The notes beneath the pieces were generated by a model. The model saw only the letters and a list, made by a program, of their open reading frames with translations. It did no database searches and was not told the DNA's origin. From positions 53,971 through 117,970 of the forward strand of contig JBAZQN010000001.1 in NCBI GenBank assembly GCA_041645165.1: DNA of 64,000 bases. Reading direction: 5' to 3'. Below are positions 1 to 61,433 of the stretch, one piece after another. Position 1 is the first letter of the stretch; the number at the start of each line of letters is the position of its first letter. This DNA is from Patescibacteria group bacterium (GTDB lineage: Bacteria; Patescibacteriota; Patescibacteriia; 2-02-FULL-49-11). Position numbers and translations under genes: made by a program.

Positions 1-672
1 CGGCCGCAATAAACTTCGTATAAAGCATGGTGGAGAGTGTGATGCGGCCGAACGCAGATATACGCAGATATTTTTCTACTGTCTCATATTTTATTGATTT
101 TTTTGTTTCTGGATCCCAGATCTCGGTCTGGGATGACAAGAAACGTGTAAGTCCTGACAGGTTAAGAATAGGAAACGTACCATTTGGCCCGAAATGGTAT
201 ATTGTCGAATGCGTACGCACTCACTGTGTGGGCATCGCCATCCTCGCGGTTTAAGCCCCCCTCTTGATCTCCCCCCTGATAGGGGGGAGACCACACGCCT
301 TGTCCTCCCCCTAAAAAGGGGGAGGTATGGCGGGGGTGTTTTAGGGGTGGGAGCATGTGAGTCCAGTGTAATTCCATTTGACCCGAAACCTCCCCTCGCG
401 TCCCTTCCTTCTCGAGGAGGGGATATTCAGATAGTGCGCTTGTTTCAAGTTCTCAATTCGAATATAATAGAAATGAGGCTATTGAGGGACTACATAAATC
501 GAAATGGTTACTAGAAGGGACAAATTTGGTGAAATATCGTACCCTGATTACATAAAATAGCACGTTAACAATGTTCGCAGCGCGGAAATGGCGATCAGTA
601 TCGTTGGTCACCACCACGGCGCTGCTGAACACTAAAAAAAGCTTTTTCAAAAAGATAGGGAGAAAGGAGGTG

Positions 673-816
673 ATGATGATGGGATGTAGTCCAGATAAAG
701 CTGGTTGTGCTTCCGGGACTCCTCGGAAGACTTCGATCCAGAAGACTCCTCGGAAGACTTCGATCCAGAAGACTCCTCGGAAGACTTCGATCCAGAAGAC
801 TTCGCGGATCCGGTAA
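673..816 (+). CDS. small repeat peptide (47 aa, TPRKTSIQK x3), hypothetical
   Basis: ATG triplets at 673-681 lie 5 nt after a strong SD (aaaggaggtg). The frame reads MMMGCSPDKAGCAS followed by three copies of TPRKTSIQK encoded by a 27-bp tandem repeat. The longer 571 ORF has no RBS. Confidence 0.25.
   Translation: MMMGCSPDKAGCASGTPRKTSIQKTPRKTSIQKTPRKTSIQKTSRIR
716..796. repeat. perfect 27-bp tandem repeat x3 (actcctcggaagacttcgatccagaag)
   Basis: Read directly: three consecutive identical 27-mers. The period is a multiple of 3, so any reading frame is preserved. Confidence 0.9.
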
Positions 817-1029
817 ATTATAAGTTCACTTACTCACCTCACCGCGTTTTAAGCCATTCAGGGTCCCTATCCTCTGGATGGCTGTTATTTTTTATAAAAG
901 AAGATTCAAGATAATATTAAAGTGTCATAAAAATTTTGCGTACGCAGAAAAATGATGACAGTTTTGTGGTGCGAACTGGGCACAGATTTGCGTGGACTTA
1001 ACGCAGACAACGCTGACATCATTGTCACC

Positions 1030-1059
1030 GTAGTGGTCGGAGATAAACTCCGACGCTAC
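1030..1059. repeat. REP-like family R copy (gtggtcggagaNaaNctccgacgctac hairpin)
   Basis: Shares the 25-27-bp core with copies at 1108-1162, 18010-18086 and 23159-23228 (reverse). The internal palindrome is tcggag/ctccga. Confidence 0.7.
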
Positions 1060-1107
1060 GAACGTGAGATCATAGACGAGCTATGACGCTACAAACGACA
1101 ATTGTAT

Positions 1108-1162
1108 GTAGCGTGGCAGTTTATCTGCCACCACGTGGTCGGAGACAAGCTCCGACGCTACG
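1108..1162. repeat. REP-like family R full copy (gtagcg-tggcag..ctgccac..ggtcggagacaagctccgacg-ctac)
   Basis: Two nested hairpins inside an outer gtagcg/cgctac inverted repeat. The same architecture is seen at 18010-18086 and 23159-23228. Confidence 0.7.
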
Positions 1163-1305
1163 GATTGAAATTGCCAGAGGTAAGATCATGGAACGAGGTT
1201 CAAAAAGGGAAACGTGCCATCTGGATCTAAATGGCTCATTTTTTAGCGTTAAAATACTATTTTGTGGTATAATTTTTATATTATTATCAGGATAACGTGA
1301 CCGGA

Positions 1306-2934
1306 ATGAAAAAACAGACTGCGTTTTTGGCTATAATGATAGTGCTTTTTTTGTTGCCCATTCCTATATTTGCGGCGCGGACGGTGAAAACCGCGGGGAG
1401 TAGCACCGTCTATTATGTGGATGACGGAGGGGTGAGGCATGCGTACCCAAACCAACATACGTACCGTAGTTGGTTTGGAGGGACCCTTCGACAAGCTCAG
1501 GGTGACAAATTAATTGAAACGGTGAAGGTTGAAGAGTTGGCGGGGATTGCGTTGGGGAAAAATGTGACGATGCGGCCCGGGTCCTTGGTGAAGATTCCTA
1601 CTGCGCCGCAGGTGTATGCGGTGGAGGCAGGCGGCATATTAAGGCCGATAGTGGGAGAGCAGACGGCAATCGACCTCTGGGGGAAGGATTGGGCAAAGAA
1701 AGTAATAGATATGCCAGAGGTATTTTTCAGCGATTACCAGATTGGCAAATCAGTGCGGGGAAGGGCGGATTTGCCTGATGGCACGTTGGTGAAATTGGAG
1801 ACCCCCCCAAGTGAGCCCCCCCTTGGTAAGGGTGGGACAAGTGCGAATTACTATTATTTCAAGGATAAAGGAGTTTTGAGACCATTTAAGGATGTCGCGG
1901 CGGTTAAGGAGAATAGGTTGGATACGAGTGTAGCGGTGGTTATCCCGCAATTATTTCCCATACGAACCCGCGTGATAAGCGGGTTAGAGTCGCGGATTGT
2001 CGAGCCACAATGGGACCTTTTGATAAATTCCGTGGACTGCGAAGCGGCAAATTTGCGCGCTGCTGTAATTTATCTTTCCCGCGGTTCCGGGAATACTGTC
2101 ACGAAATTAAACCTGTGGCGCACTTCGGTGGCGTCCTCCTGGGAGAGGAGAACCGACGTGCTGTCGCTTATCTCTATTGATCCTGTGGAAGAGATGGTAT
2201 TGGAGGATCGCTTTTTAGGCAGTACCACCCTTGAGATGCAGGAAATCAGCCGCACGTTTTTTGATACGCACCGCGATGTGTATGATTTCCTCTTTGTCTG
2301 GAACCCCGCCGTGCCGGTCAATGGCACGAAGGAACTTGCTGATTTTTGGCCGGTCACCAACCAGATCGACGGTTTGGGAAAGGCGGCGTTCGAGCGCGGT
2401 GAACTCTATGGCAGCAAGGGAAAGCTCAAAGCAGTAATCAATATGGGAAGGCCGGGCGATTATCCCATTGATGACACCGCCGGCATGGCAAGGGCGGTTG
2501 AAACGGGGCTGCATGAGCTGCTCCACCAATGGAGCGGGGAAGCGGATTATAAGGACAGCAAAGGAGCCGATCGCACTGATCTGCAGACCGCGGACGGCTA
2601 TCACTGGTCGCCTCTTGCGGATCTCATTTCCCCGCTTGGCGGATGGGGATGGAGGGACAACGGCGACGGTACGCTCACTTCAAAGCGTTCTCTTTATACC
2701 ACCCAGCAGCTAGCAGATCTTCATTTTCCTGATCTTGATTTATATTTGATGGGATTGGTGCCGAGGCATTCTGTGGCGCCGTTTTCCTATATCGTGCCCA
2801 CTGCGGCAGGCGTTTCGCTCACGGATACGGTCGTGGGAACCCTCCGGAGCGTTAGCATCGATGACGTGGTGTATGGGAATGGTGTGAGAAGGTGCACAAA
2901 CCGTAACATGGGTTATATTCAGGAGATTTGGTAA
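1306..2934 (+). CDS. secreted protein with HExxH motif (putative zinc metallopeptidase) and N-terminal ~55-aa repeat modules shared with the 1235-aa surface protein
   Basis: Signal peptide MKKQTAFLAIMIVLFLLPIPIFAA. Three modules of the G-x-LVK-x-P-x-VY-x-V-x-G-x-LR type, as in ORF 55487-59176. HELLH follows in the C-terminal half. The ORF-track start at 1297 is GTG; ATG 1306 is preferred. Confidence 0.6.
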   Translation: MKKQTAFLAIMIVLFLLPIPIFAARTVKTAGSSTVYYVDDGGVRHAYPNQHTYRSWFGGTLRQAQGDKLIETVKVEELAGIALGKNVTMRPGSLVKIPTAPQVYAVEAGGILRPIVGEQTAIDLWGKDWAKKVIDMPEVFFSDYQIGKSVRGRADLPDGTLVKLETPPSEPPLGKGGTSANYYYFKDKGVLRPFKDVAAVKENRLDTSVAVVIPQLFPIRTRVISGLESRIVEPQWDLLINSVDCEAANLRAAVIYLSRGSGNTVTKLNLWRTSVASSWERRTDVLSLISIDPVEEMVLEDRFLGSTTLEMQEISRTFFDTHRDVYDFLFVWNPAVPVNGTKELADFWPVTNQIDGLGKAAFERGELYGSKGKLKAVINMGRPGDYPIDDTAGMARAVETGLHELLHQWSGEADYKDSKGADRTDLQTADGYHWSPLADLISPLGGWGWRDNGDGTLTSKRSLYTTQQLADLHFPDLDLYLMGLVPRHSVAPFSYIVPTAAGVSLTDTVVGTLRSVSIDDVVYGNGVRRCTNRNMGYIQEIW

Positions 2935-8567: not shown

Positions 8568-8716
8568 CCTTATTCCGATTTGTCATTCCTGATTTATTCA
8601 GGAATCCAGTAACAAAAATATAAAATCGATCGTTATGGTAGTTCTGGTTTTCTGGATCCCGCATCTTGAGTGCGGGATGACGGTGAGGAATCGGAATTTG
8701 AATAGCAATTGAGTAT
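8568..8716 (+). repeat. structured repeat family B copy 1 (attccgatt-[gtcattcc..ggaatcc]-..atcgatcg..-[ggatcccgc..gcgggatgacg]-..aatcggaatttgaatagcaattgagtat)
   Basis: Two hairpins with stems conserved and loops variable relative to copies at 60069-60277 and 42921-43030 (reverse). Terminal inverted repeats attccgatt/aatcggaat. Confidence 0.7.
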
Positions 8717-8770: not shown

Positions 8771-10534
8771 ATGAAACTAGTAACGAAACAAACTTTTTCA
8801 CTTCTCTGGCGTCATGCGAGGCCGTACAAGAAGCTCCTTTCATTCATGATCGCGACGCTGGCGATGGGCATGATACTCGAAACGGTGGTCCCGCTTTTCT
8901 ATAAGCGGTTTTTTGATTTGTTAAGCGACGGTTCAGTCCCGCGCGCTGCACAGACCGGCGCGCTTATCCGCACCGTTATCATAATCCTGATGCTGTACCT
9001 CGTGGAGTGGATCCTCTGGCGTGTTACCACCTTTGCGAACAATTACTTCCAGCCGCGCGTCATGTCTGACATCCTTAATTCTTCGTTTGAATATCTCCAT
9101 GCCCATGCCTACGGCTTTTTCGTAAACCGCTTCGTGGGAGCGCTGGTGCGTAAGGTAAACCGCCTTGTGGATGCGTTTGAAAGCATCGCCGATAGGATAT
9201 GCTGGGATTTGCTGCCCATGGCCATACGCATCGTGACCATCCTCATCGTGCTGTGGTTTCGCAGTACCACCGTTGCGCTTGTCATGATGGTATGGATTGT
9301 CTTTTATCTTGCCGTGAACTACGCGTTTACGATGTTCAAGCTCAAATACGACGAGCAGAGCGCGACGGTTGATTCGCGGGTCACCGCGCATTTGGGCGAC
9401 ACGATTACGAACAACGTCAACATTAAGCTCTTTACTTCCTTAGCGAGTGAATTGCGCTCGTTCAAGCGTATCACGACTGATCAATTTAAAATCAGGAAGT
9501 TCGTGTGGGATTTAAGCGCAATCCTTGAGGCGATCCAGGCGCTGTTTATGATTTTTCTTGAGTATGCGATTTTCAGGATTTCTATACACTATTGGGCAAT
9601 GGGGGTTTTCAGCATCGGCGATTTCGTGCTTATCCAAGCCTACCTTCTGCAGATATTCAACCGCCTCTGGGATTTCGGCCGCATCATCCGCGATATTTAT
9701 AAGCGTTTGGCGGATGCCGAGGAAATGGTGGAGATACTCCATACGCCGCACGGAGTGCAGGATGCCTCGAATGCAAAAAAATTAGTGGTGAAGAATGGTG
9801 AAGTTGATTTTCGGAAAATACATTTTACCTATACGGGAGTGCAGGACGTGCTCCATGATTTTTCACTGCTGATACGCCCCGGGGAAAAAGTTGGCTTGGT
9901 GGGGCCGTCGGGAGCAGGCAAGTCCACCATTACCGCGCTTCTTTTCCGTTTTTATGATGTCACGAAGGGGGGTATTTATATTGACGGCATTAATGTTAAA
10001 CAGGTGACGCAACGGTCGCTGCGCGAGAGTATCAGTCTGGTCCCGCAAGATCCCATCCTTTTCCACCGCACTCTGATGGACAATATCCGCTATGGCAGGC
10101 TTGATGCCATGGATGCGGAAGTGTTCCGGGCGGCAAAGCTTGCGCATTGCGATGAATTTATCCAGCGGATGCCGGACAGCTATGAAACTTTTGTGGGAGA
10201 GCGGGGAATAAAGCTTTCTGGGGGTGAGCGCCAAAGAGTGGCGATCGCGAGGGCGATCCTGAAAAATGCGCCGATCCTCGTGCTTGATGAGGCGACCTCG
10301 AGCCTTGATTCGCATTCCGAAGCGATGATCCAGGACGCCTTGGAAAAACTGATGATTGATAAGACCGTCATCGTTATTGCGCACCGGCTTTCCACGATCA
10401 TGAAGATGGACCGGATCGTGGTGGTCAAGGAAGGCCGCATCACGGAGCAGGGGACTCATGATGCGCTCCTGACGATGCCGCGCGGCACCTACCGCATGCT
10501 TTGGCGTTTGCAGGCAGGCGGATTTATTAAATAA
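8771..10534 (+). CDS. ABC transporter, fused permease/ATP-binding exporter (MsbA-like)
   Basis: Six N-terminal TM helices. Walker A GPSGAGKST, signature LSGGERQRVAIARA, Walker B ILVLDEATS. Confidence 0.9.
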   Translation: MKLVTKQTFSLLWRHARPYKKLLSFMIATLAMGMILETVVPLFYKRFFDLLSDGSVPRAAQTGALIRTVIIILMLYLVEWILWRVTTFANNYFQPRVMSDILNSSFEYLHAHAYGFFVNRFVGALVRKVNRLVDAFESIADRICWDLLPMAIRIVTILIVLWFRSTTVALVMMVWIVFYLAVNYAFTMFKLKYDEQSATVDSRVTAHLGDTITNNVNIKLFTSLASELRSFKRITTDQFKIRKFVWDLSAILEAIQALFMIFLEYAIFRISIHYWAMGVFSIGDFVLIQAYLLQIFNRLWDFGRIIRDIYKRLADAEEMVEILHTPHGVQDASNAKKLVVKNGEVDFRKIHFTYTGVQDVLHDFSLLIRPGEKVGLVGPSGAGKSTITALLFRFYDVTKGGIYIDGINVKQVTQRSLRESISLVPQDPILFHRTLMDNIRYGRLDAMDAEVFRAAKLAHCDEFIQRMPDSYETFVGERGIKLSGGERQRVAIARAILKNAPILVLDEATSSLDSHSEAMIQDALEKLMIDKTVIVIAHRLSTIMKMDRIVVVKEGRITEQGTHDALLTMPRGTYRMLWRLQAGGFIK

Positions 10535-52919: not shown

Positions 52920-53186
52920 TTATGATTCAGCGCTTATATCCCATTGTTTAACATATTTGCCTATACCGTGCCGCTGAAGTTTATTTTGGCGCCGCAGGGA
53001 TATTTGGGTCCATGCGAGCAGGCTTTCAAAGTTGATCTTATATCTTCCTTTGATAACGATAAATTTAATCTCCTTATTTTTTAGCGCGGTTCTTATTGTT
53101 TTATCAGAGAGGCCGAATAACTTTGCTGCCTCTGAAACCGATACCCTTATTAAAGGAATAGATGAAGGTGCATTATTTTCTGGCAT
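52920..53186 (-). CDS. small HTH DNA-binding protein (excisionase/MerR-like HTH_17 type)
   Basis: VSEAAKLFGLSDKTIRTALKNKEIKFIVIKGRYKI. Confidence 0.5.
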   Translation of the reverse strand: MPENNAPSSIPLIRVSVSEAAKLFGLSDKTIRTALKNKEIKFIVIKGRYKINFESLLAWTQISLRRQNKLQRHGIGKYVKQWDISAES

Positions 53187-53390
53187 ATCTTAAGGTATAA
53201 TCATATTAAACATAATCACTATATAATAGTTTTAAAATCTAGACAAGTCTAGAAGTTCATAGTATAAATAATAATTATCCACATTGGATTTCTAGATATA
53301 TCTAGATATTAGTATAAATTTTGTTATAAATTATATAAAAATAAGACAATATTCAGGTGTAACAGATGGTATTTAATAACGTCTACTTTA

Positions 53391-53963
53391 ATGCAAGACG
53401 CATCAGATAGCCTAATTGAAAGGATACGGCAGGGCGACAGAGAGGCCTTAGGAGAAATGTACGACACATTTGCCCCTTCTCTTTATCGTTATATCTCCTT
53501 TCGCATTGCACATACACAGGATAGGGAAGATATATTGAGCAGTGTTTTTTTAAGGGTATTTGAATCCATTGCGAAAGGGAAAATGATAACGAACATCAGG
53601 GCGTTTCTTTATCAATCAACGCGGAATGCGATTATAGATTATTACCGGGAGTCATCACGCAGTTCTTCAGTTATCATAGAATGGAATGAAGAGTTATTGC
53701 AGGACGAACAGTCTCTTACGCCCCTTTTGCATTCGGAACAACTTATCGACACCGCTATCCAAAACAGAATCATAGCGAAAGAGCTTGGGAACTTGAAAGA
53801 AGAATATCGTGAACTACTTTCATTGCGATATATAGAAGATCTGGAAATAGATGAGATTGCGGCGATTATGCAGAAATCTCACATCGCGGTACGCGTTACG
53901 CTCCATAGGGCGCTCAAAGCGCTCAAGAAATTAGTAGAAAGTACTATAAGTGCTAATAAGTGA
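53391..53963 (+). CDS. RNA polymerase ECF-type sigma-70 family factor
   Basis: Region 2 (LYRYISFRIAHTQDREDILSSVFLRVFE) and region 4 HTH (IDEIAAIMQKSHIAVRVTLHRALKALKK). Confidence 0.85.
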   Translation: MQDASDSLIERIRQGDREALGEMYDTFAPSLYRYISFRIAHTQDREDILSSVFLRVFESIAKGKMITNIRAFLYQSTRNAIIDYYRESSRSSSVIIEWNEELLQDEQSLTPLLHSEQLIDTAIQNRIIAKELGNLKEEYRELLSLRYIEDLEIDEIAAIMQKSHIAVRVTLHRALKALKKLVESTISANK

Positions 53964-55149
53964 TATGCGAGATAATGATCTCATAAAATCATTAATAAAT
54001 CTTCGCCAGCACACATCGGTGCCGGAGCGCAGCCTTGTTTCATTGCGCACAAAAGTGCTGAATAGCGCTGGTTCTATCACGTTTACACAAAATAGCCGCA
54101 TACCTCCCTTACCAATACAAACGACTTCATTATTCGTTTTTTGGAAATCATATATACAAACCCATTTTAGCATTATTCCGCAGGTGGCAACCGCAGTGGT
54201 AATTGTGCTGGTGATAGTCGGCGCAGGTTCGGCATATTCCTTACACGCAAAACCCGGCTCCCCTTTATATAAAGTAAGGATAACCTTGGAGAATACGAAC
54301 GTGGCGCTCCATTCCCAGCCAACGAGGCGTACTGCACTGGAAATCCAGCTTTTTGATAAGGGAGTGAGCGAGCTCAAAGAAATGAGCACAAATGACGCAT
54401 CTTCTTTCGCAGTAATCGCGGTCATAGATACTCTTGACGAGCGGTTAGTCAAAGTAAACGATAGGATCGGCACATTAAAGGGGGTTCAATTGGACTCACA
54501 AGTGGTACCCACCATAATTTCCGCAACCGATAAAGCCATATATGCACATAATACGCTGAAAAATCTTCGAGAATCTGCTCCGATCGCCATGCAGTCGAAG
54601 TACAATAGAGCTATTGCGGCGTCATCGCGATTGAAGATTACTGCGCTGCAGGCTCTGGTAACCTATTCTGACGGCACAAAAGATACCAAGGCGCAGGAAG
54701 CAGTCGCTGAAAAGCTGCAGGATGAGATTATTGCCGCCAAAGAAAGCATTAATACGTTAAAAGGGGCACAAGAGCCGGAAACGGCTGCAAAGACAGATAA
54801 TATAAAGAATCTTGAAAATGCTATTAACAATGCCGAGATTGCGCTTAAAGAAGGAAATTTAAGCATTGCACTAAACCATATTATTGAATCCAATGAATTA
54901 TTAGAATCTTCCAAAGGCATTGTAGAGGGGGATTCCATAGAAATTATAGGAAGTTTACAGTCAGTAACTTCAACTAACGAATCCAGTACACCCGTCATTG
55001 TGGATGAACCTGTTGTAGTGCTAGAACCTTCTGGAAATTCGAATAGATCTGTATTGTCCAGCACTACTTCATTACCTCTAAATATTGAAGAAAATATTGA
55101 ACAAACACCAAAAGAACCGCCAGAGTTTCCGTTGGGGTTTGATCTTTAA
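53950..55149 (+). CDS. putative anti-sigma factor: single-pass membrane protein with extracytoplasmic coiled-coil domain
   Basis: Overlaps the sigma gene by 14 nt. One TM helix (VATAVVIVLVIVGAGSAY) and an alpha-helical C-terminal domain. Placement is typical of ECF anti-sigma factors. Confidence 0.5.
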   Translation: MLISDMRDNDLIKSLINLRQHTSVPERSLVSLRTKVLNSAGSITFTQNSRIPPLPIQTTSLFVFWKSYIQTHFSIIPQVATAVVIVLVIVGAGSAYSLHAKPGSPLYKVRITLENTNVALHSQPTRRTALEIQLFDKGVSELKEMSTNDASSFAVIAVIDTLDERLVKVNDRIGTLKGVQLDSQVVPTIISATDKAIYAHNTLKNLRESAPIAMQSKYNRAIAASSRLKITALQALVTYSDGTKDTKAQEAVAEKLQDEIIAAKESINTLKGAQEPETAAKTDNIKNLENAINNAEIALKEGNLSIALNHIIESNELLESSKGIVEGDSIEIIGSLQSVTSTNESSTPVIVDEPVVVLEPSGNSNRSVLSSTTSLPLNIEENIEQTPKEPPEFPLGFDL

Positions 55150-55486
55150 AGTTGACAAAAGAGTATTCTGTTGTTCTAATGTATAATGTACAGAGAAAAG
55201 GGATGCTTGCCTGGATGCGACTTATTGTTGTAGATGAGCAAGAATATTTTAGTTTTATTTGTAATAAAGATTTATGGCATTGCTCATAGAGGGTTATGTC
55301 ATAACTTTATAATTTAAAAAGGTCGGCCTCTTATTTATTCAAGCATTTGGATAAATAAGTTGTAACGCTAATAAACTTGTCTGTTATATTTGATTTTAAT
55401 AGGTCGAATCATTATTAATAAAGTAACAGGCAAGATACACACTGTACGGTACTTTATCTACCGGCAGGGTGCGAAAGGAAGTACGA

Positions 55487-58400
55487 ATGTCGAATTTTAT
55501 CAAAAAAAGTTTTACATGGGGAGTTGTGGGCGCCACTATCGTATGGTCGCTCGGAATATTTGTTCTCCCCGTTCAAGTGAAGGGCGCGCAGGACGGCGAT
55601 CTTATCAAGATGCCGGGTAATCCTGCGGTATACCTTCTCAAGGGCGGCAAGAGATTTGTATTCCCGAACGACAAGGCATACTTTACGTGGTACAGCGACT
55701 TCTCTGGAGTGGTAACGGTATCGCAATCCGAGCTCCAATCGTATCCCATCGGCGGCAACGTGACTTACAAACCAGGTACCAGGTTAATAAAGATCACGAC
55801 CGATCCGAAGGTATATGCGGTTGAGCCAAACGGAACTCTCCGATGGGTAACATCGGAAGCGATCGCCGTTTCCCTCTACGGATCAAACTGGAACAAGAGA
55901 ATTGATGACGTTCCAGATCCGTTCTTCGTGAACTACACCACCGGCGCAGATGTCACGACTGCAACATACCCGGTTGGCTCTATAGTGAAAGAAGAGAGCT
56001 CCGCCACGGTCTATTACATTGCCGAGAGCAATACCAAGCGGCCATTCGCCACTGATGCGGCGCTCACCGCGAACATGATGAAGACCGGCAATGTGCTCAC
56101 CGCGACCAGTCTCGCCAGCTACACTTCAGGCACCTCTGTCACAGGCAAAGAGGACACGCTTGCAGTATTTGGCGGCACCACGAGCACCGGCCCCGCGGCA
56201 GGCGGCACGCTTTCATTGGCGCTCTCTGCTGACACGCCCGCGTCTGGCGTCTTCGTGAAAAGCGCTGCGCGCGTTCCGTTTACCTATATCAATGCGACCG
56301 CAACCGGCGGCGAAGCAGTGATTGACTCGATGGTAATCCAAAGAGGCGGCATTGCGCAGGACTCGATATTTTCAGATATCACCATTCTTGTGGATGGGAC
56401 GCAGGTGGGATTAAACAAATCCTTTAACTCCGTGCACCAAGCCACATTGTATGATGACATCACCATCCCAAGCGGCACTACCAAGAAGATCATGCTGACC
56501 GGTAATACGTCAGCGATGGCCTCAAACTCTGGTGAAATGCCGATCCTTGGTTTGGCTGCAGTTACCCTCAAGAGCGGCACCTTGTCAGCATCGCTGCCAA
56601 TCTATGGCAACCCGATGACTGCCAATAACACTATCAGTATCGCTGCCGTAACCGTCGCGCGCGGTCCGCTTGACCCCGGCGCCACTTCTACCCAGAAGAT
56701 CGGCACCAAACAATATGCCTTCACCTCGGTGAAACTTAGCAATGATTCAGTAGAAAAAGTGCAGGTGGAAGAGCTTATCTGGGATCAGGCAGGTTCAGCT
56801 GACGATTCAGACATTTCAAATGTCAATCTTTTGGTTGACGGCGTTGTGATTGCGTCCCTGTCCAATCCAGTGGACAAGAAAGCGCACTTCAAGCTTGCAA
56901 CCCCATATTTGATTGATAAGGGGAAGAACAAAGAGTTTACCATCAAGGCGGATATTGATTCTGGATCAAACCGCACGGTGGACTTTGACATCGAAAAGAA
57001 TACCGATGTCGTGGTAAAGGGATTAACCTATGGCTATTATGTCCTGGCAACAGGATGGCCATCAGCGACTGATCCTCGATTGAGCGGTTATGCCGTGACC
57101 ATTGATACTGGCTCGCTAAAGATTGAGCCTGTCGCCACCGCGTCCAACAAGATAACGGACGGCTCCACAGGCCAGATCTTGGGCATGTTTAATTTTGAGG
57201 CAAAGGGTGAAGATGTTTCCATCACTTCTCTCGGCATCAAGGTTACCGTTTCAAGCTCCGCGGCAAACGTATCTGACGTGACCAATATCACGCTCTATGA
57301 CGAGGCAGGCCTTGCGGTAGCCGGTCCGGTAGACCCTACAGGAACTACCGCAGATATTACCGCAACTTCCACTGATACCATTACGGTGCCCGTCGGCATT
57401 CATAAATACACCGTTAAGGGTGATTTGAGCACTGATTTTGTGTCTGCGGATACGGTGTTAGTGAAAATTAAGCCTTCAGACATCACTTCAAAGGGCGTCA
57501 CGACAGGCAAGACGGTCACCCCGACGCCCGCGACATACCAAACCTCTACCACACAAACGGTGCAGGCAGGATCTCTTGTGGCGAACATTTCCACGACTCC
57601 TGTGGCACAGACCGTGGTCGCAGGCACCAATGGGCATACCTTTACGAACTATGTGCTTGACGCGCAAGGTTCTGGCGAAGATATCCGTGTCACGCAGATA
57701 AAGGCTGCCATGCATACCACGGGGTCTTCCTACCCTGCGTTGATTTCAGGATTGAAGCTTTATGACGGCTCCCTCGAGCTCGTCACGTCAAATGATCCTG
57801 ATCCGACGAACACCACTGCAGCCGCATCGGCTACTTCAACCTTCACCTTTGTGAATGCGCTTGTAGTGCCGAAGGGAACCTCCAAGACTTTGTCGCTCAA
57901 GGGGAATATCTCCAAGAGCGTCACGTCTGGCACAGTGAAACTCGGGCTTCAGAATGATGCGACGAATGCTATCGCGGCGACAGGCAAGGATACCGGCGCG
58001 ACCATTACTCCTACCTACAGCTATTCTGACGGCCAAGCGATGACACTCACTGATGCTGGCACACTCACGCTCTCGGCAGACGCGTCTACGCCAATCGCAG
58101 GGCATGTTCCCGGTTCATCCACCGGACTCCCTGTGGGCGTATTCTCCATGCAATCGAGGCATGAGGATATCAATGTAGAAAAGATTTGGTTCAGGCTCTC
58201 AGCGGTGAACAGCGGCGGTCCAGATCAAGTTGACAAGATTTGGCTCACTGACGGCACGAAGACTGTAGGGGTTACTCCAACCTCTTCAGATTCTTCCGCT
58301 CCGGTTCAGGTGCTCTTCGATGTGTCACTTGATCCATTCGTGGTTGCCGCAAACACTACCAAGCTCTATACCCTCAAGGTTGATACGGCGCAAGTTGACA

Positions 58401-59176
58401 CGCCATCAGGATCCAAGGGCGCCATGGGCGAGGGCTTCCAGTTCTCGATTAACGCAACCGGTGATATTACCGCAAAAGGTGCGTCATCTGGCAATAGCGT
58501 AAGCACGATTACTGGCACGCCCACGTTCAATGCCTTTACCCTGTATAAGACTGTGCCAACAGTTGACGTATCGAGCGGAGTGACGAATAAGCTTACTTCA
58601 AACGGCACCTATGAACTCTACAAGTTCACCATTGCCGCGGATCCGAAGGGCGAAGTAGCTCTCTATAAGCTTACGTTCGGCATTTCAACGACCACGGTCA
58701 CCGCATCCAGCTTCGAGCTACGCGACAGCGGGTATACCCAGGGCGCAGTAGGCACCCTCTCCGTAGCGTCGCAGAACCTCGCTGTTCCGGCGTCAGGATA
58801 TCTCGAGTTCCTGTTTGACACGGATTCAAGCGGTATAGGCCAAGGCGGTGAGTATCGATCGATTCCTGCAGGCAGCTCGCGAACCTTTACTTTGAAGGCC
58901 AGCGTAAGCGGCTACAGCTCAAGCGTCTCCAATGGCGTGAACGTTGCGCTCGCAGGCGATGCAACCTTCCCATCAACCGTGGTTGAGTGCGCAGGCACTA
59001 CCGGAGCAAGCGATAATGCGTGCACCGGTGTAGATTCCGACGATCAGGACGACTTCATCTGGTCTGACCTTAACTATGGTAACAACTCCACGACTGCCAC
59101 TAATACGGCACAATGGACCAACGGTTACCGCGTGAAAGGCCTTGATTCAACCTCGTCAACTGCGCAATCAATCTAA
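55487..59176 (+). CDS. large Thr/Ser/Gly-rich secreted surface protein (S-layer/adhesin-like), N-terminal ~55-aa modules shared with ORF 1306-2934
   Basis: Signal peptide/TM FTWGVVGATIVWSLGIFVLPVQVKGA. Modules GDLIKMPGNPAVYLL... and GTRLIKITTDPKVYAVEPNGTLRWV... Over 1000 aa of low-complexity T/S/G/A/V beta-rich sequence. RBS aaggaag before ATG 55487; the ORF-track start at 55469 is GTG. Confidence 0.7.
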   Translation: MSNFIKKSFTWGVVGATIVWSLGIFVLPVQVKGAQDGDLIKMPGNPAVYLLKGGKRFVFPNDKAYFTWYSDFSGVVTVSQSELQSYPIGGNVTYKPGTRLIKITTDPKVYAVEPNGTLRWVTSEAIAVSLYGSNWNKRIDDVPDPFFVNYTTGADVTTATYPVGSIVKEESSATVYYIAESNTKRPFATDAALTANMMKTGNVLTATSLASYTSGTSVTGKEDTLAVFGGTTSTGPAAGGTLSLALSADTPASGVFVKSAARVPFTYINATATGGEAVIDSMVIQRGGIAQDSIFSDITILVDGTQVGLNKSFNSVHQATLYDDITIPSGTTKKIMLTGNTSAMASNSGEMPILGLAAVTLKSGTLSASLPIYGNPMTANNTISIAAVTVARGPLDPGATSTQKIGTKQYAFTSVKLSNDSVEKVQVEELIWDQAGSADDSDISNVNLLVDGVVIASLSNPVDKKAHFKLATPYLIDKGKNKEFTIKADIDSGSNRTVDFDIEKNTDVVVKGLTYGYYVLATGWPSATDPRLSGYAVTIDTGSLKIEPVATASNKITDGSTGQILGMFNFEAKGEDVSITSLGIKVTVSSSAANVSDVTNITLYDEAGLAVAGPVDPTGTTADITATSTDTITVPVGIHKYTVKGDLSTDFVSADTVLVKIKPSDITSKGVTTGKTVTPTPATYQTSTTQTVQAGSLVANISTTPVAQTVVAGTNGHTFTNYVLDAQGSGEDIRVTQIKAAMHTTGSSYPALISGLKLYDGSLELVTSNDPDPTNTTAAASATSTFTFVNALVVPKGTSKTLSLKGNISKSVTSGTVKLGLQNDATNAIAATGKDTGATITPTYSYSDGQAMTLTDAGTLTLSADASTPIAGHVPGSSTGLPVGVFSMQSRHEDINVEKIWFRLSAVNSGGPDQVDKIWLTDGTKTVGVTPTSSDSSAPVQVLFDVSLDPFVVAANTTKLYTLKVDTAQVDTPSGSKGAMGEGFQFSINATGDITAKGASSGNSVSTITGTPTFNAFTLYKTVPTVDVSSGVTNKLTSNGTYELYKFTIAADPKGEVALYKLTFGISTTTVTASSFELRDSGYTQGAVGTLSVASQNLAVPASGYLEFLFDTDSSGIGQGGEYRSIPAGSSRTFTLKASVSGYSSSVSNGVNVALAGDATFPSTVVECAGTTGASDNACTGVDSDDQDDFIWSDLNYGNNSTTATNTAQWTNGYRVKGLDSTSSTAQSI

Positions 59177-59237
59177 ACTGATCATTTAGATGAGATTAAG
59201 ATGCATTGACAGCGATTGAATCGCCAGAGTGGCATTC

Positions 59238-59276
59238 CGCCCCCCGCAATTGCGGGGGGCGGATGCTTGTTTCTGG
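59238..59276 (+). terminator. Rho-independent terminator
   Basis: A 12-bp GC stem ccgccccccgca/tgcggggggcgg followed by cttgttt. Confidence 0.6.
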
Positions 59277-59324: not shown

Positions 59325-60056
59325 ATGATATACCAATTAAAACAGAACAGAATTTTACTTCTGTTAGCGGCAATAATAATCGTAATCGGCGGAGGAATAT
59401 ATTACCAACAATATCGTCAACGACCGCCAGTTTATTCCGGCAACGGATTACCGGCGGAACTTCAGCCCTATGCTCATTTATTCGAGTTTGAGAATCTTGA
59501 CCCCAATCTTCCGGATTCGGCGCGTGAGAAATTTTTTAAGCGTTTCACCAATGATACCAATGCGCTTCGCGCAAACCCCGACAATTTTAATGCATGGCTG
59601 GATATTGGGCTCGTGCATAAGAATTTAAACGCGTTTGAGAAAGCGCGCGATGCGTGGGAGCATCTGGGCGAGATCCGTCCCCTTAACTCCATCTCATTTT
59701 CAAATATTGGGGATCTCTATGCGTGGTTTCTCCATGAACCAGCCAAGGGCGAAGCGGCATACCTGCAGGCTCTAAAAAATGAGCCGACCGATATAAATTT
59801 CTACAGAAATCTTGCCGAGATATACGATAAGCTCATGCCCGAAAGGAAAGGCCAAATTGACCCGCTTCTGGAAGAGGGGATAAAGGCAGCAAGAACAAAT
59901 ACGGAGAAAGCAGAGCTCACCGCGCTTATGGCAAGTTACGAACGTGATCGTGGAGAAAAGGATGAAGCGCTAAAACATTATCGCGAGGTACTCGCGCTCG
60001 ATCCAAAGTATCCTAAAAAAGAGTTGATTCAGGCAGAGATAGATAAATTATACTAA
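59325..60056 (+). CDS. membrane-anchored tetratricopeptide-repeat protein
   Basis: N-terminal TM (ILLLLAAIIIVIGGGIYY) then TPR-like helices (AWLDIGLVHKNLNAFEKARDAWE...). Confidence 0.6.
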   Translation: MIYQLKQNRILLLLAAIIIVIGGGIYYQQYRQRPPVYSGNGLPAELQPYAHLFEFENLDPNLPDSAREKFFKRFTNDTNALRANPDNFNAWLDIGLVHKNLNAFEKARDAWEHLGEIRPLNSISFSNIGDLYAWFLHEPAKGEAAYLQALKNEPTDINFYRNLAEIYDKLMPERKGQIDPLLEEGIKAARTNTEKAELTALMASYERDRGEKDEALKHYREVLALDPKYPKKELIQAEIDKLY

Positions 60057-60296: not shown

Positions 60297-61433
60297 TCAA
60301 TTGAGATACACGCGTTCGGTCGCCGCGATCATCGTTTGAAGTGTGGGGATCGGCTTGGGTGGTGATTCTCGAACAGTGGAAGTTGCGGAGAGCACCGAGA
60401 GAATCACTTCGGTAAGCGCAAAGGAGTCCTTCGGATCAATGAGGCGATACATAGCATTTTCCTCCATAACTTCAGGAATTCCTCCCACGCGTGTTGCGAC
60501 GATAGGAATGTGCGCGGCAAGCGCTTCGAGGATGGTATAGGGAAGGCCTTCTTTGAGCGAGGGAAGTGCGAAACAATCAAACGCTTTTAGGTACACGGCA
60601 GCATCAGGAATATGCCCCAGCAGGTGGCAATTTTTTTGTAAATGATTTGCGGCAATAAATTGCTCAAGTTTATTTCTTTCCGGTCCTTCGCCAATGATGA
60701 GGAAATGGAATTCTGGATTTTTTTGGATAATAGTTTTTGCCGACTCAAGCAGCGTATCCAATCCCTTGGTCGCATATAATCCTGCAATGGTGCCGATCCA
60801 TGTTGCAGCAGCATTGAGGGGAGGAAATTTTTTAGAAAGATGCAATCGTGCCTCGTCGCGTGTAAGAAATGAAATTTCCTTAATCCCTATGGGTATGGTC
60901 ACTATATTTTGCGGCTTGGCAATATGTGCGCGGATTGCCGCACGGTGATCGTCTTCTGAAACGCAAATCGTGACATCGCGCAGTTTTCCCGCAAACCACT
61001 CCGCTAGCCAGTAGATAAGCTTAATGATAGGCGCGAGAGGCTCTTTGAGCACCAAGCCATGCACAGTATAGATTATCTTCGGCACGCGAGCGAAGCGCGC
61101 GGCTAATGCGCCTAGAAATCCTGACTTCGATGAATTGAGATGGACAATTTGCGGCCGGATACTGCGGCAAAGTTGATAGATTTCTGCGATAGCGGCGACG
61201 TCATTCAGCGGCGAGAGGGGACGTTTTAGTCTTGAGAGATACACTGCGTGCACGCCGGTATCTTGTAAACGGGCAAAAAGCTCTCCCTCTGGGTCTTCTC
61301 CTGCCGCGACCGTGACATCCCATCCGCGGGATGCGAAATGCGATGCCAAGTCGAAGACATACCTCTGCGCCCCTCCCCATACCGACTGGGTGACGAGGAA
61401 GAGAATTTTTTTCATGCGGGCTGGTATTTCCAT
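60297..61433 (-). CDS. glycosyltransferase family 4
   Basis: SLKEGLPYTILEALAAHIPIVATRVGGIPEVMEE. Confidence 0.8.
   Translation of the reverse strand: MEIPARMKKILFLVTQSVWGGAQRYVFDLASHFASRGWDVTVAAGEDPEGELFARLQDTGVHAVYLSRLKRPLSPLNDVAAIAEIYQLCRSIRPQIVHLNSSKSGFLGALAARFARVPKIIYTVHGLVLKEPLAPIIKLIYWLAEWFAGKLRDVTICVSEDDHRAAIRAHIAKPQNIVTIPIGIKEISFLTRDEARLHLSKKFPPLNAAATWIGTIAGLYATKGLDTLLESAKTIIQKNPEFHFLIIGEGPERNKLEQFIAANHLQKNCHLLGHIPDAAVYLKAFDCFALPSLKEGLPYTILEALAAHIPIVATRVGGIPEVMEENAMYRLIDPKDSFALTEVILSVLSATSTVRESPPKPIPTLQTMIAATERVYLN

Follow-up and report, generated by a model that had tools for sequence, protein, structure and literature searches.

A candidate surface-layer-type glycoprotein locus of Patescibacteria with a putative three-module anchor, an upstream ECF sigma factor cassette and a structured leader RNA

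When the gene of a very long secreted protein stands just downstream of an extracytoplasmic function (ECF) sigma factor gene, is the protein a component of the surface layer (S-layer), how is it held on the cell, and is it the sigma factor that drives its expression? These questions are raised by a stretch of 64,000 nucleotides from a Patescibacteria group bacterium (GenBank assembly GCA_041645165.1, contig JBAZQN010000001.1, positions 53,971 to 117,970), hereafter called the window. An original prediction made on this DNA had described an ECF sigma factor, an overlapping anti-sigma gene, a surface-protein open reading frame (ORF) of 1235 residues and an HExxH protein, and all of these ORFs do exist in the window (Table 1). 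On balance we favour the view that the long ORF and its surroundings form a conserved S-layer-type glycoprotein locus of the Candidate Phyla Radiation (CPR), in which a wall-anchored protein of 1229 aa (hereafter the big protein) is encoded behind a structured leader RNA, and in which the ECF promoter belongs to the sigma gene only.

The likely start of the big protein is ATG 55487, which is preceded by GAAAGGAAG and at which the homologues also begin. The search returned over 576 homologues, those listed measuring about 1140-1330 aa and all the named ones belonging to Patescibacteria, and a scan of GTDB genomes confirmed relatives in 521 candidate stretches. The similar lengths of the listed homologues, the lack of internal repeats in a self-BLAST and a mean predicted local distance difference test (pLDDT) of 87.8 for the AlphaFold model speak against a misassembled or low-complexity region. 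In the model, three alpha/beta modules occupy mature residues 1-190; a short linker predicted with low confidence leads to about six beta-sandwich domains, and the chain closes with a small piece at the C-terminus. Ser and Thr account for 24% of the whole protein. Sequence searches of the big and the HExxH protein against Pfam, NCBIfam and PDB gave no family or structure match; for the big protein no Pfam or NCBIfam family was found at E <= 0.1, SLH, CW_binding_2 and PG_binding_1 included, and Foldseek comparison of its model with the PDB returned only generic Ig-like, MG, PrgB and integrin arrays. The signal peptides of the family share the motif KK-x-F-[TS]-x3-V-x3-T-I-x-W-S-[VL]-G, which is atypical of a generic Sec signal, does not occur in the HExxH protein and may represent a specialised sorting signal.

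A broader affiliation emerged from one homologue, P0104, whose body aligns with that of the big protein at 35% identity along 82% of the length. A search with P0104 returned proteins of about 1135-1276 aa named as Sung-, Niyogi-, Harrison- and Vogelbacteria, several of which carry the NCBI name 'peptidoglycan-binding protein', and the body of the window protein is about 35% identical to these orthologues. At the N-terminus of P0104, of P0108 and of most of the 120 listed Sung-/Harrison-/Vogelbacteria-type orthologues, a PG_binding_1 domain stands in place of the three modules. On the basis of the P0104 body match and of the proteins found by that search, the window protein would be its lineage's orthologue of the PG_binding_1 'peptidoglycan-binding protein' family, equipped with a different anchor.

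Cryogenic transmission electron microscopy has revealed that CPR cells possess S-layers and lack an outer membrane. Published predictions of S-layer proteins in Patescibacteria include Nealson-, Doudna-, Kaiser-, Kazan- and Parcubacteria entries of 1131-1274 aa, A0A1F5NRV7 among them, and proteins of the same size class gave p6 lattice predictions (bioRxiv 10.1101/2024.05.28.596244). In cultured Paceibacteria, the most strongly expressed genes of secreted proteins include some that encode peptidoglycan-binding domains (Kuroda 2024, PMC10936435). Compared by description rather than by sequence, the window protein resembles these proteins in phylum, size class, signal peptide, an N-terminal domain that would here too bind the wall, and Ig-like domains, whereas its clade differs in having the candidate three-module anchor, an upstream ECF/DUF5667/HTH_17 cassette and the leader RNA. 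The reading of the big protein as an S-layer protein, already put forward in the original prediction, is plausible, and the protein is a good candidate; the wider family has probably already been predicted as a Patescibacteria S-layer protein. Some Gram-positive S-layer proteins have anchors built of three repeats, either 3xSLH (SbsB, Sap/EA1) or 3xCWB2 (C. difficile SlpA). The big protein has in common with them a signal peptide, three tandem terminal repeats (here of a presumed anchoring role), a beta-rich multi-domain body and neighbouring glycan genes, and differs from them in lacking any SLH or CW_binding_2 match and in the fold of its presumed anchor.

The N-termini of the big and the HExxH protein are 35% identical over 198 columns (BLASTP, E 4e-28) and match module for module (E 2e-7, 4e-18 and 5e-5), while modules inside one protein are only about 25% alike. 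The sharing that had been predicted was therefore recovered, with a corrected count: instead of two to three modules there are three in each protein, each about 60-66 aa long. A profile built from the two window copies matched 4,901 cluster representatives, 1,937 of them at E <= 1e-30, in proteins spanning 214-1562 aa, where the module set is usually N-terminal and sometimes C-terminal. In 66 module-bearing proteins of lengths other than those of the big-protein family all partner domains were extracytoplasmic, and they included Big_1/Invasin_D3, Big_5, GH10, DUF3048, a chagasin-type inhibitor, CARDB and cohesin. The top Foldseek matches of the HExxH-protein model were EccB1 and EccB5 (E 2.6e-4), whose repeat domains are small units of a beta-sheet and two helices resembling the wall-binding phage protein PlyCB (PMC4769845). 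The window modules are likewise repeats of about 55-65 aa with a small beta-sheet and two helices, and EccB is a component of the cell envelope; they differ from EccB in the absence of sequence similarity, in forming three repeats without the EccB core domain and in their protein context. Given the exchange with PG_binding_1 in orthologues, the promiscuous use of the set at both protein ends and its arrangement as three repeats, it is best read as a cell-wall anchor. The anchoring or targeting role formerly proposed is supported in an indirect way by this exchange, by the spread over many secreted proteins at N- or C-termini and by EccB as best structural match, and the modules did not prove to be a ubiquitous fold devoid of a role in localisation.

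Depending on whether GTG 1297 or ATG 1306 is taken as the start, the HExxH protein measures 545 or 542 aa, and its model has a pLDDT of 87.2. An identical protein is recorded for a Patescibacteria group bacterium on a 182-kb contig. Counted on the 542-aa form, HELLH occupies residues 403-407 and does not vary among 28 homologues; M482 in DLYLMG is also conserved. After EccB, Foldseek matched the model with adamalysin, ADAM and ADAMTS catalytic domains (probability 1.0, target-normalised TM-scores 0.4-0.5). It is alike to these metzincins in HExxH and catalytic-domain fold, whereas the extended motif HExxHxxGxxH is missing, since HELLHQWSGEA has neither Gly at +3 nor His at +6 after the second His. 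No sequence relatives of the catalytic part were found among known peptidase families, nor any Pfam or PDB sequence match. When the model was compared with viral structures by Foldseek, nothing but small actinophage proteins of uncharacterised function was matched. The idea that this protein processes or remodels the surface layer was not borne out: the shared modules occur in at least 4,900 clusters and the two genes lie 52 kb apart, and possession of so common a module is no sign of a specific link between the two proteins. The HExxH protein appears to be a passenger unrelated to the big protein, possibly a metzincin-like zinc protease carried on the same anchor. Upstream of its gene, imperfect direct repeats of the form gtggtcggaga[t/c]aa[a/g]ctccgacgctacg were noted at window positions 960-1200, together with a TG-extended -10 element (tgtggtataat) at about 1265.

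As to the genomic setting of the big gene, 86 related loci were fetched (designated by L-numbers), and about 80 Patescibacteria genomes (Uhr-, Falkow-, Buchanan-, Kuenen- and Magasanikbacteria) repeat the order HTH_17, ECF sigma, DUF5667-like protein, protein of about 1230 aa, tetratricopeptide repeat (TPR) protein and GT4 glycosyltransferase. The nearest locus, with 91% identity to the big gene, belongs to Candidatus Uhrbacteria RIFCSPLOWO2_02_FULL_49_11. In 78 of the 86 loci a sigma gene of the same orientation lies ahead of the big gene; of the remaining eight loci, seven have too short an upstream sequence. In most loci a divergent HTH_17 gene stands ahead of the sigma gene. Between the sigma and the big gene lies a gene of about 1.1 kb, recorded with DUF5667 (PF18915) in L001 and L003, whose position overlapping or abutting the sigma gene is conserved. 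Downstream of the big gene the relatives carry a TPR membrane protein, PMT-family glycosyltransferases and a convergent GT4 gene, and in the window the locus is embedded in a sugar-nucleotide and glycan block (GDP-mannose dehydratase, epimerases, DegT, nucleotidyl transferase, GT4 and UDP-glucose dehydrogenase).

The sigma factor (190 aa) possesses Sigma70_r2 and r4_2 and no region 3. It scored 76.5 bits against the NCBIfam model sigma70-ECF (TIGR02937, cut-off 42.9), and its best named NCBIfam model was BldN (TIGR02952), with 112.6 bits, under the cut-off of 206.45. The following gene begins at a GTG with a 14-nt overlap with the sigma gene, an in-frame ATG (53965) lying just past the sigma stop codon; in the product, about 70 residues precede a single hydrophobic span at about aa 71-100, and a presumably extracytoplasmic DUF5667 domain, matched with 27.0 bits, exactly the Pfam cut-off of 27, comes after it. 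The protein is presumed to be the anti-sigma factor. In Streptomyces, Sigma-BldN and RsbN control the chaplin and rodlin surface layer. The likeness consists in an ECF sigma factor with a membrane anti-sigma (presumed here) linked to surface-layer proteins and in BldN being the best named model here, the difference in the score of the window sigma (112.6 against 206 bits) and in the lack of an ECF promoter before the window surface-protein gene.

The motif GTAAC-N16-CGTCT upstream of the sigma gene is the sole exact match in the window and is, to judge from its sequence, a classical autoregulated ECF promoter. Its first base stands 32 nt ahead of the sigma ORF start in 18 related loci, about ten more have it at other offsets, and among close relatives GGTGTAACA...CGTCTACTT is invariant. 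With only 6 nt between the end of the motif and the ATG, the sigma transcript would be leaderless or near-leaderless. Promoters of the Bacillus subtilis sigma-X/W/M type read TGTAAC/TGAAAC-N16-17-CGTA/CGAC; the window motif resembles them, implying autoregulation, and differs in its closeness to the ATG and in its presence inside the sigma ORF in related loci. Such an internal copy, GTAAC-N17-CGTCT, occurs in 33 of 78 loci at +291 to +405, always in frame 0. In nearly all of the 33 loci the residue before Ser varies (T/A/P) and the codon keeps xCG, which indicates that the constraint acts on nucleotides. Upstream and internal copies are nearly mutually exclusive, the upstream one being present in 22 loci and both in a single one, and the internal motif looks like a relocated ECF promoter for the anti-sigma gene, and perhaps for the surface-protein gene, rather than for the sigma gene. 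The interval that separates the divergent HTH_17 gene from the sigma promoter contains two palindromes built on TCTAGA; as they keep their symmetry in relatives despite changed half-sites, they are probably operators. Elsewhere in the window a relaxed ECF-like motif, GTAAC-N17-CGTTA, was observed at 8609-8635, with 135 nt between it and an ABC exporter gene (8771-10534). The relaxed motif gave six matches in the window, this site included, as compared to about three expected by our own estimate; only the match before the sigma gene is exact, and the site at 8609 is compatible with chance.

With respect to the big gene itself, the dedicated ECF control of a surface protein that had been envisaged was not confirmed: the sigma gene has its own ECF motif and none precedes the big gene. 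The check then proposed, for AAC...CGT upstream of the big gene, came out negative, with no AAC-N15-18-CGT in 55150-55486, and among 61 related loci AAC-N16-17-CGT preceded the big gene in 4, where chance alone would give 8.4. The GTAAC sites at 55362 and 55424 were rejected, having the wrong spacing and not being conserved in L008. A sigma-70-like promoter (TTGACA-N17-TCTAAT) was instead read from the sequence; the promoter scan had missed it, as this requires an A at position 2 of the -10 hexamer. It is conserved in L007, L008 and, as TTGACG-N18-TATAAT, in L016. The generic sigma-70 scan gave no conserved position across loci. No terminator was predicted between 55149 and 55487, a strong one being found only after the big gene. 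Read-through into the big gene from the sigma operon, or a sensing link, may exist in view of the conserved synteny and of this lack of a predicted terminator.

Between the DUF5667 and the big gene the heptamer AAGGTCG recurs in 51 of 64 upstream regions of the family, compared with 1.2 expected. It belongs to a bulged-hairpin RNA motif, mostly located 68-178 nt before the start codon, in which a P1 stem of 5-10 bp encloses a 5' bulge of 10-13 nt ending in AAAGGUCGR and a P2 hairpin abuts the 3' strand of P1. A covariance model (R2), started from 7 seed sequences and rebuilt from 23 matches, gave 62 matches in 1.26 Mb, 55 of which lay immediately before the big gene and in its orientation. In an alignment of 32 sequences 94.6% of cells were paired, whereas shuffles gave 64% and slid controls 38-56%; all 12 pairs showed changes on both sides. 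At gathering thresholds Rfam 15 recognised only a tRNA in the window, and scans of the window and L056 leaders by E-value gave no relevant match. R2 found no motif in the loci of the PG_binding_1 orthologues, nor in L087 and L088 (66-68% identical relatives), although both keep AAAGGTCGAC. In a second group of loci (L039, L048, L054, L056, L068 and others) extra conserved blocks, CCCGCTCGT...ATCCTCGCCA before P1 and TTATTCA after P1, were located 30-40 nt 5' and 5-12 nt 3' of the motif, and the conserved RNA may be larger in these lineages. The PG_binding_1 orthologues show long upstream intergenic regions of 460-970 nt (L089 5031-6000, L090 5541-6000, L091 5421-6000) and may carry a different leader element.

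The leader RNA is most likely an element that stabilises or processes the mRNA of a presumably very highly expressed gene, or binds a trans-acting factor. No conserved complement in cis to the bulge was found in the leader above control k-mers in a search for pseudoknots or sequestration, which makes a trans-acting partner or a ligand likelier than a pseudoknot. Stabilisers in the 5' leader of highly expressed genes are known in Gram-positive bacteria, as in the STAB-SD of cryIIIA and the 5' stem-loops of S-layer mRNAs. The present element resembles them in the long leader, in a stable stem at a set distance from the start and in the Shine-Dalgarno-like AAAGG exposed in the bulge; it differs in the invariant GGUCGR, which is not complementary to the anti-Shine-Dalgarno, and in having no Rfam family. 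A more ambitious proposal, that the RNA is a new cis-regulatory class (riboswitch or protein-binding element) forming, together with the ECF sigma/DUF5667 sensor, an S-layer-tuning circuit in one CPR branch, half of whose lineages have the ECF promoter within the sigma gene, can only be advanced tentatively, and we deem it rather improbable.

Table 1. Coordinates of the features of the locus and of the HExxH gene (positions refer to the window unless a related locus is named; nt on the strand indicated).
Feature	Position	Strand	Details
Secreted HExxH protein gene	1306..2934	+	Signal peptide; modules 1375-1950; metzincin-like catalytic domain; HELLH 2512-2526
HTH_17 (MerR/excisionase-type) DNA-binding protein gene	52920..53186	-	Pfam HTH_17, E 1.9e-10; divergent from sigma gene
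Inverted repeat TCTAGAC-AA-GTCTAGA, candidate operator	53238..53253		Conserved in L007, L008; half-sites changed in L087, L088
Perfect 16-bp palindrome TCTAGATATATCTAGA, candidate operator	53291..53306		CTACA..TGTAG at the same place in L087, L088
Predicted ECF-type promoter GTAAC-N16-CGTCT	53359..53384	+	Ends 6 nt before sigma ATG
ECF (group IV) sigma factor gene	53391..53963	+	Sigma70_r2, r4_2, Sigma70_ECF
Internal ECF motifs in sigma ORFs of related loci	L035 5208-5234; L056 4796-4822; L039 5213-5239		
DUF5667 single-pass membrane protein gene	53950..55149	+	Presumed anti-sigma factor
Sigma-70-like promoter TTGACA-N17-TCTAAT	55152..55180	+	Just past DUF5667 stop codon
Leader RNA motif	55309..55363	+	P1, 5' bulge AAAAAGGUCGG, long P2; AAGGTCG at 55319-55325
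Possible second, degenerate RNA copy (UAAUAGGUCGAA)	55389..55423	+	R2 4.4 bits, E 0.69; weak; conserved only in L008
Big surface protein gene	ATG 55487 (1229 aa) or GTG 55469 (1235 aa), to 59176	+	
Signal peptide of big protein	55487..55585	+	Hydrophobic span aa 8-30; family motif
Three alpha/beta modules, candidate cell-wall anchor	55586..56170	+	About 60-66 aa each
About six tandem beta-sandwich (Ig-like) domains	56207..58960	+	25% Ser+Thr; model pLDDT mostly >85
Strong intrinsic terminator 3' of big gene	59236..59263	+	12-bp stem, 11 G-C pairs, then T-rich tail
Membrane-anchored TPR protein gene	59325..60056	+	TPR families, N-terminal hydrophobic span; conserved downstream neighbour
GT4 glycosyltransferase gene	60297..61433	-	Synteny with called GT4 genes in L001, L003, L005, L090

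Taken together, the 1229-aa protein is more likely than not the version, in the Uhr-/Falkow-/Buchananbacteria group, of a major surface-layer-type glycoprotein of Patescibacteria. It would be exported through Sec and held on the cell wall by the three N-terminal modules, an unnamed alpha/beta unit whose nearest fold is the EccB repeat, so as to display about six Ser/Thr-rich beta-sandwich domains; these are probably O-glycosylated by the products of the PMT, GT4 and TPR genes that flank the locus in relatives and of the sugar-nucleotide genes of the window. Transcription of its gene in the window lineage appears to start at the sigma-70-like promoter about 300 nt upstream, and any ECF input would come through read-through from the sigma operon or through envelope sensing by the DUF5667 protein. 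Several observations weigh against this picture. No solved S-layer protein was among the top 50 Foldseek matches of the big-protein model, the TM-scores of the EccB match are low (0.10-0.14), and the binding of peptidoglycan by EccB repeats is merely suggested in its source (PMC4769845). The PMT genes are not adjacent to the big gene within the window, and the sigma-70-like promoter is conserved in close relatives only. Regarding the RNA, the covariation alignment was fitted to its own model, and the window copy is weak (R2 10.5 bits, E 0.009 in 421 nt) on account of a 31-nt insert in P2.

The same protein might rather be a wall-anchored adhesin or a host-attachment fibre of Ig-like domains that forms no lattice, as suggested by its best structural matches, which are adhesin-type Ig arrays (PrgB, S. 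gordonii C123, integrins), by the episymbiotic life of CPR bacteria reported in the literature and by the Big_1/Invasin_D3 proteins that use the same module anchor. Nonetheless, the similar length of the listed homologues, the fixed genomic position and the conservation across orders fit a structural housekeeping protein better than a fast-diversifying adhesin, and proteins of the same size class in Patescibacteria have published p6 lattice predictions, so we regard the adhesin as a rather unlikely explanation. It is unlikely, too, that the modules bind carbohydrates or a host, or serve oligomerisation, instead of anchoring the protein to the wall: although they match no known wall-binding family in sequence, the ligand of the EccB repeat is but a suggestion, and GH10 and cohesin, frequent companions of carbohydrate-binding modules, are among their partners, PG_binding_1 replaces them position for position in orthologues with the same body, and three tandem terminal repeats mirror the established 3xSLH and 3xCWB2 anchors.

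On the regulatory side, the sigma factor could drive the surface-protein gene directly, sigma, anti-sigma and surface protein forming one ECF-dependent operon read through from the sigma promoter. The conserved one-strand order of sigma, DUF5667-like and big protein in 78 loci and the absence of a predicted terminator ahead of the big gene would agree with such an operon, and the ECF motif inside the sigma ORF (33 loci) can serve downstream genes only. The PG_binding_1 orthologues, moreover, are without ECF pair, tri-module anchor and RNA-model match alike, a hint that the three features travel together. Yet the 337 nt before the big gene contain no ECF-type motif, which across 61 loci is rarer than chance; a structured intergenic leader of 260-340 nt, with a near-consensus sigma-70 promoter in the window lineage, separates the DUF5667 gene from the big one; and orthologues are apparently expressed where no ECF gene is adjacent. 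Direct ECF control is in our opinion doubtful. As regards the AAAGGTCGR element, it might be a DNA operator, a promoter element or the terminator of the upstream operon rather than part of a leader RNA, considering that the bulge sequence is invariant like a protein-binding site, that an HTH_17 regulator is encoded nearby and that a few copies are followed by T-rich runs. Both stems, however, covary extensively with differing sequences, a pattern selected only in single-stranded nucleic acid, the matches to the RNA model are strand-specific, most copies have no U-tract, and the operator-like palindromes near HTH_17 differ from AAAGGTCGR in sequence, all of which makes a DNA element very unlikely.

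Outside the locus, a putative small ORF with tandem TPRKTSIQK repeats was noticed at window positions 571-816.

Three elements are new from the present analysis, namely the conserved ECF/DUF5667/HTH_17 cassette with its promoter, the bulged-hairpin leader RNA, which is not in Rfam and was previously undescribed, and the definition and spread of the unnamed three-module domain. The CPR/Patescibacteria constitute a large share of bacterial diversity, and their envelope proteins are almost all annotated as 'hypothetical'. The clean ECF promoter consensus makes regulon prediction possible in these organisms, the covarying leader RNA provides a testable handle on gene regulation in bacteria that so far cannot be cultivated on their own, and the three-module domain, occurring in thousands of CPR secreted proteins, could serve to predict the wall-attached proteome. 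For the Uhr-/Falkow-/Buchananbacteria group, the locus offers a candidate major surface protein with a proposed anchor-plus-lattice architecture.

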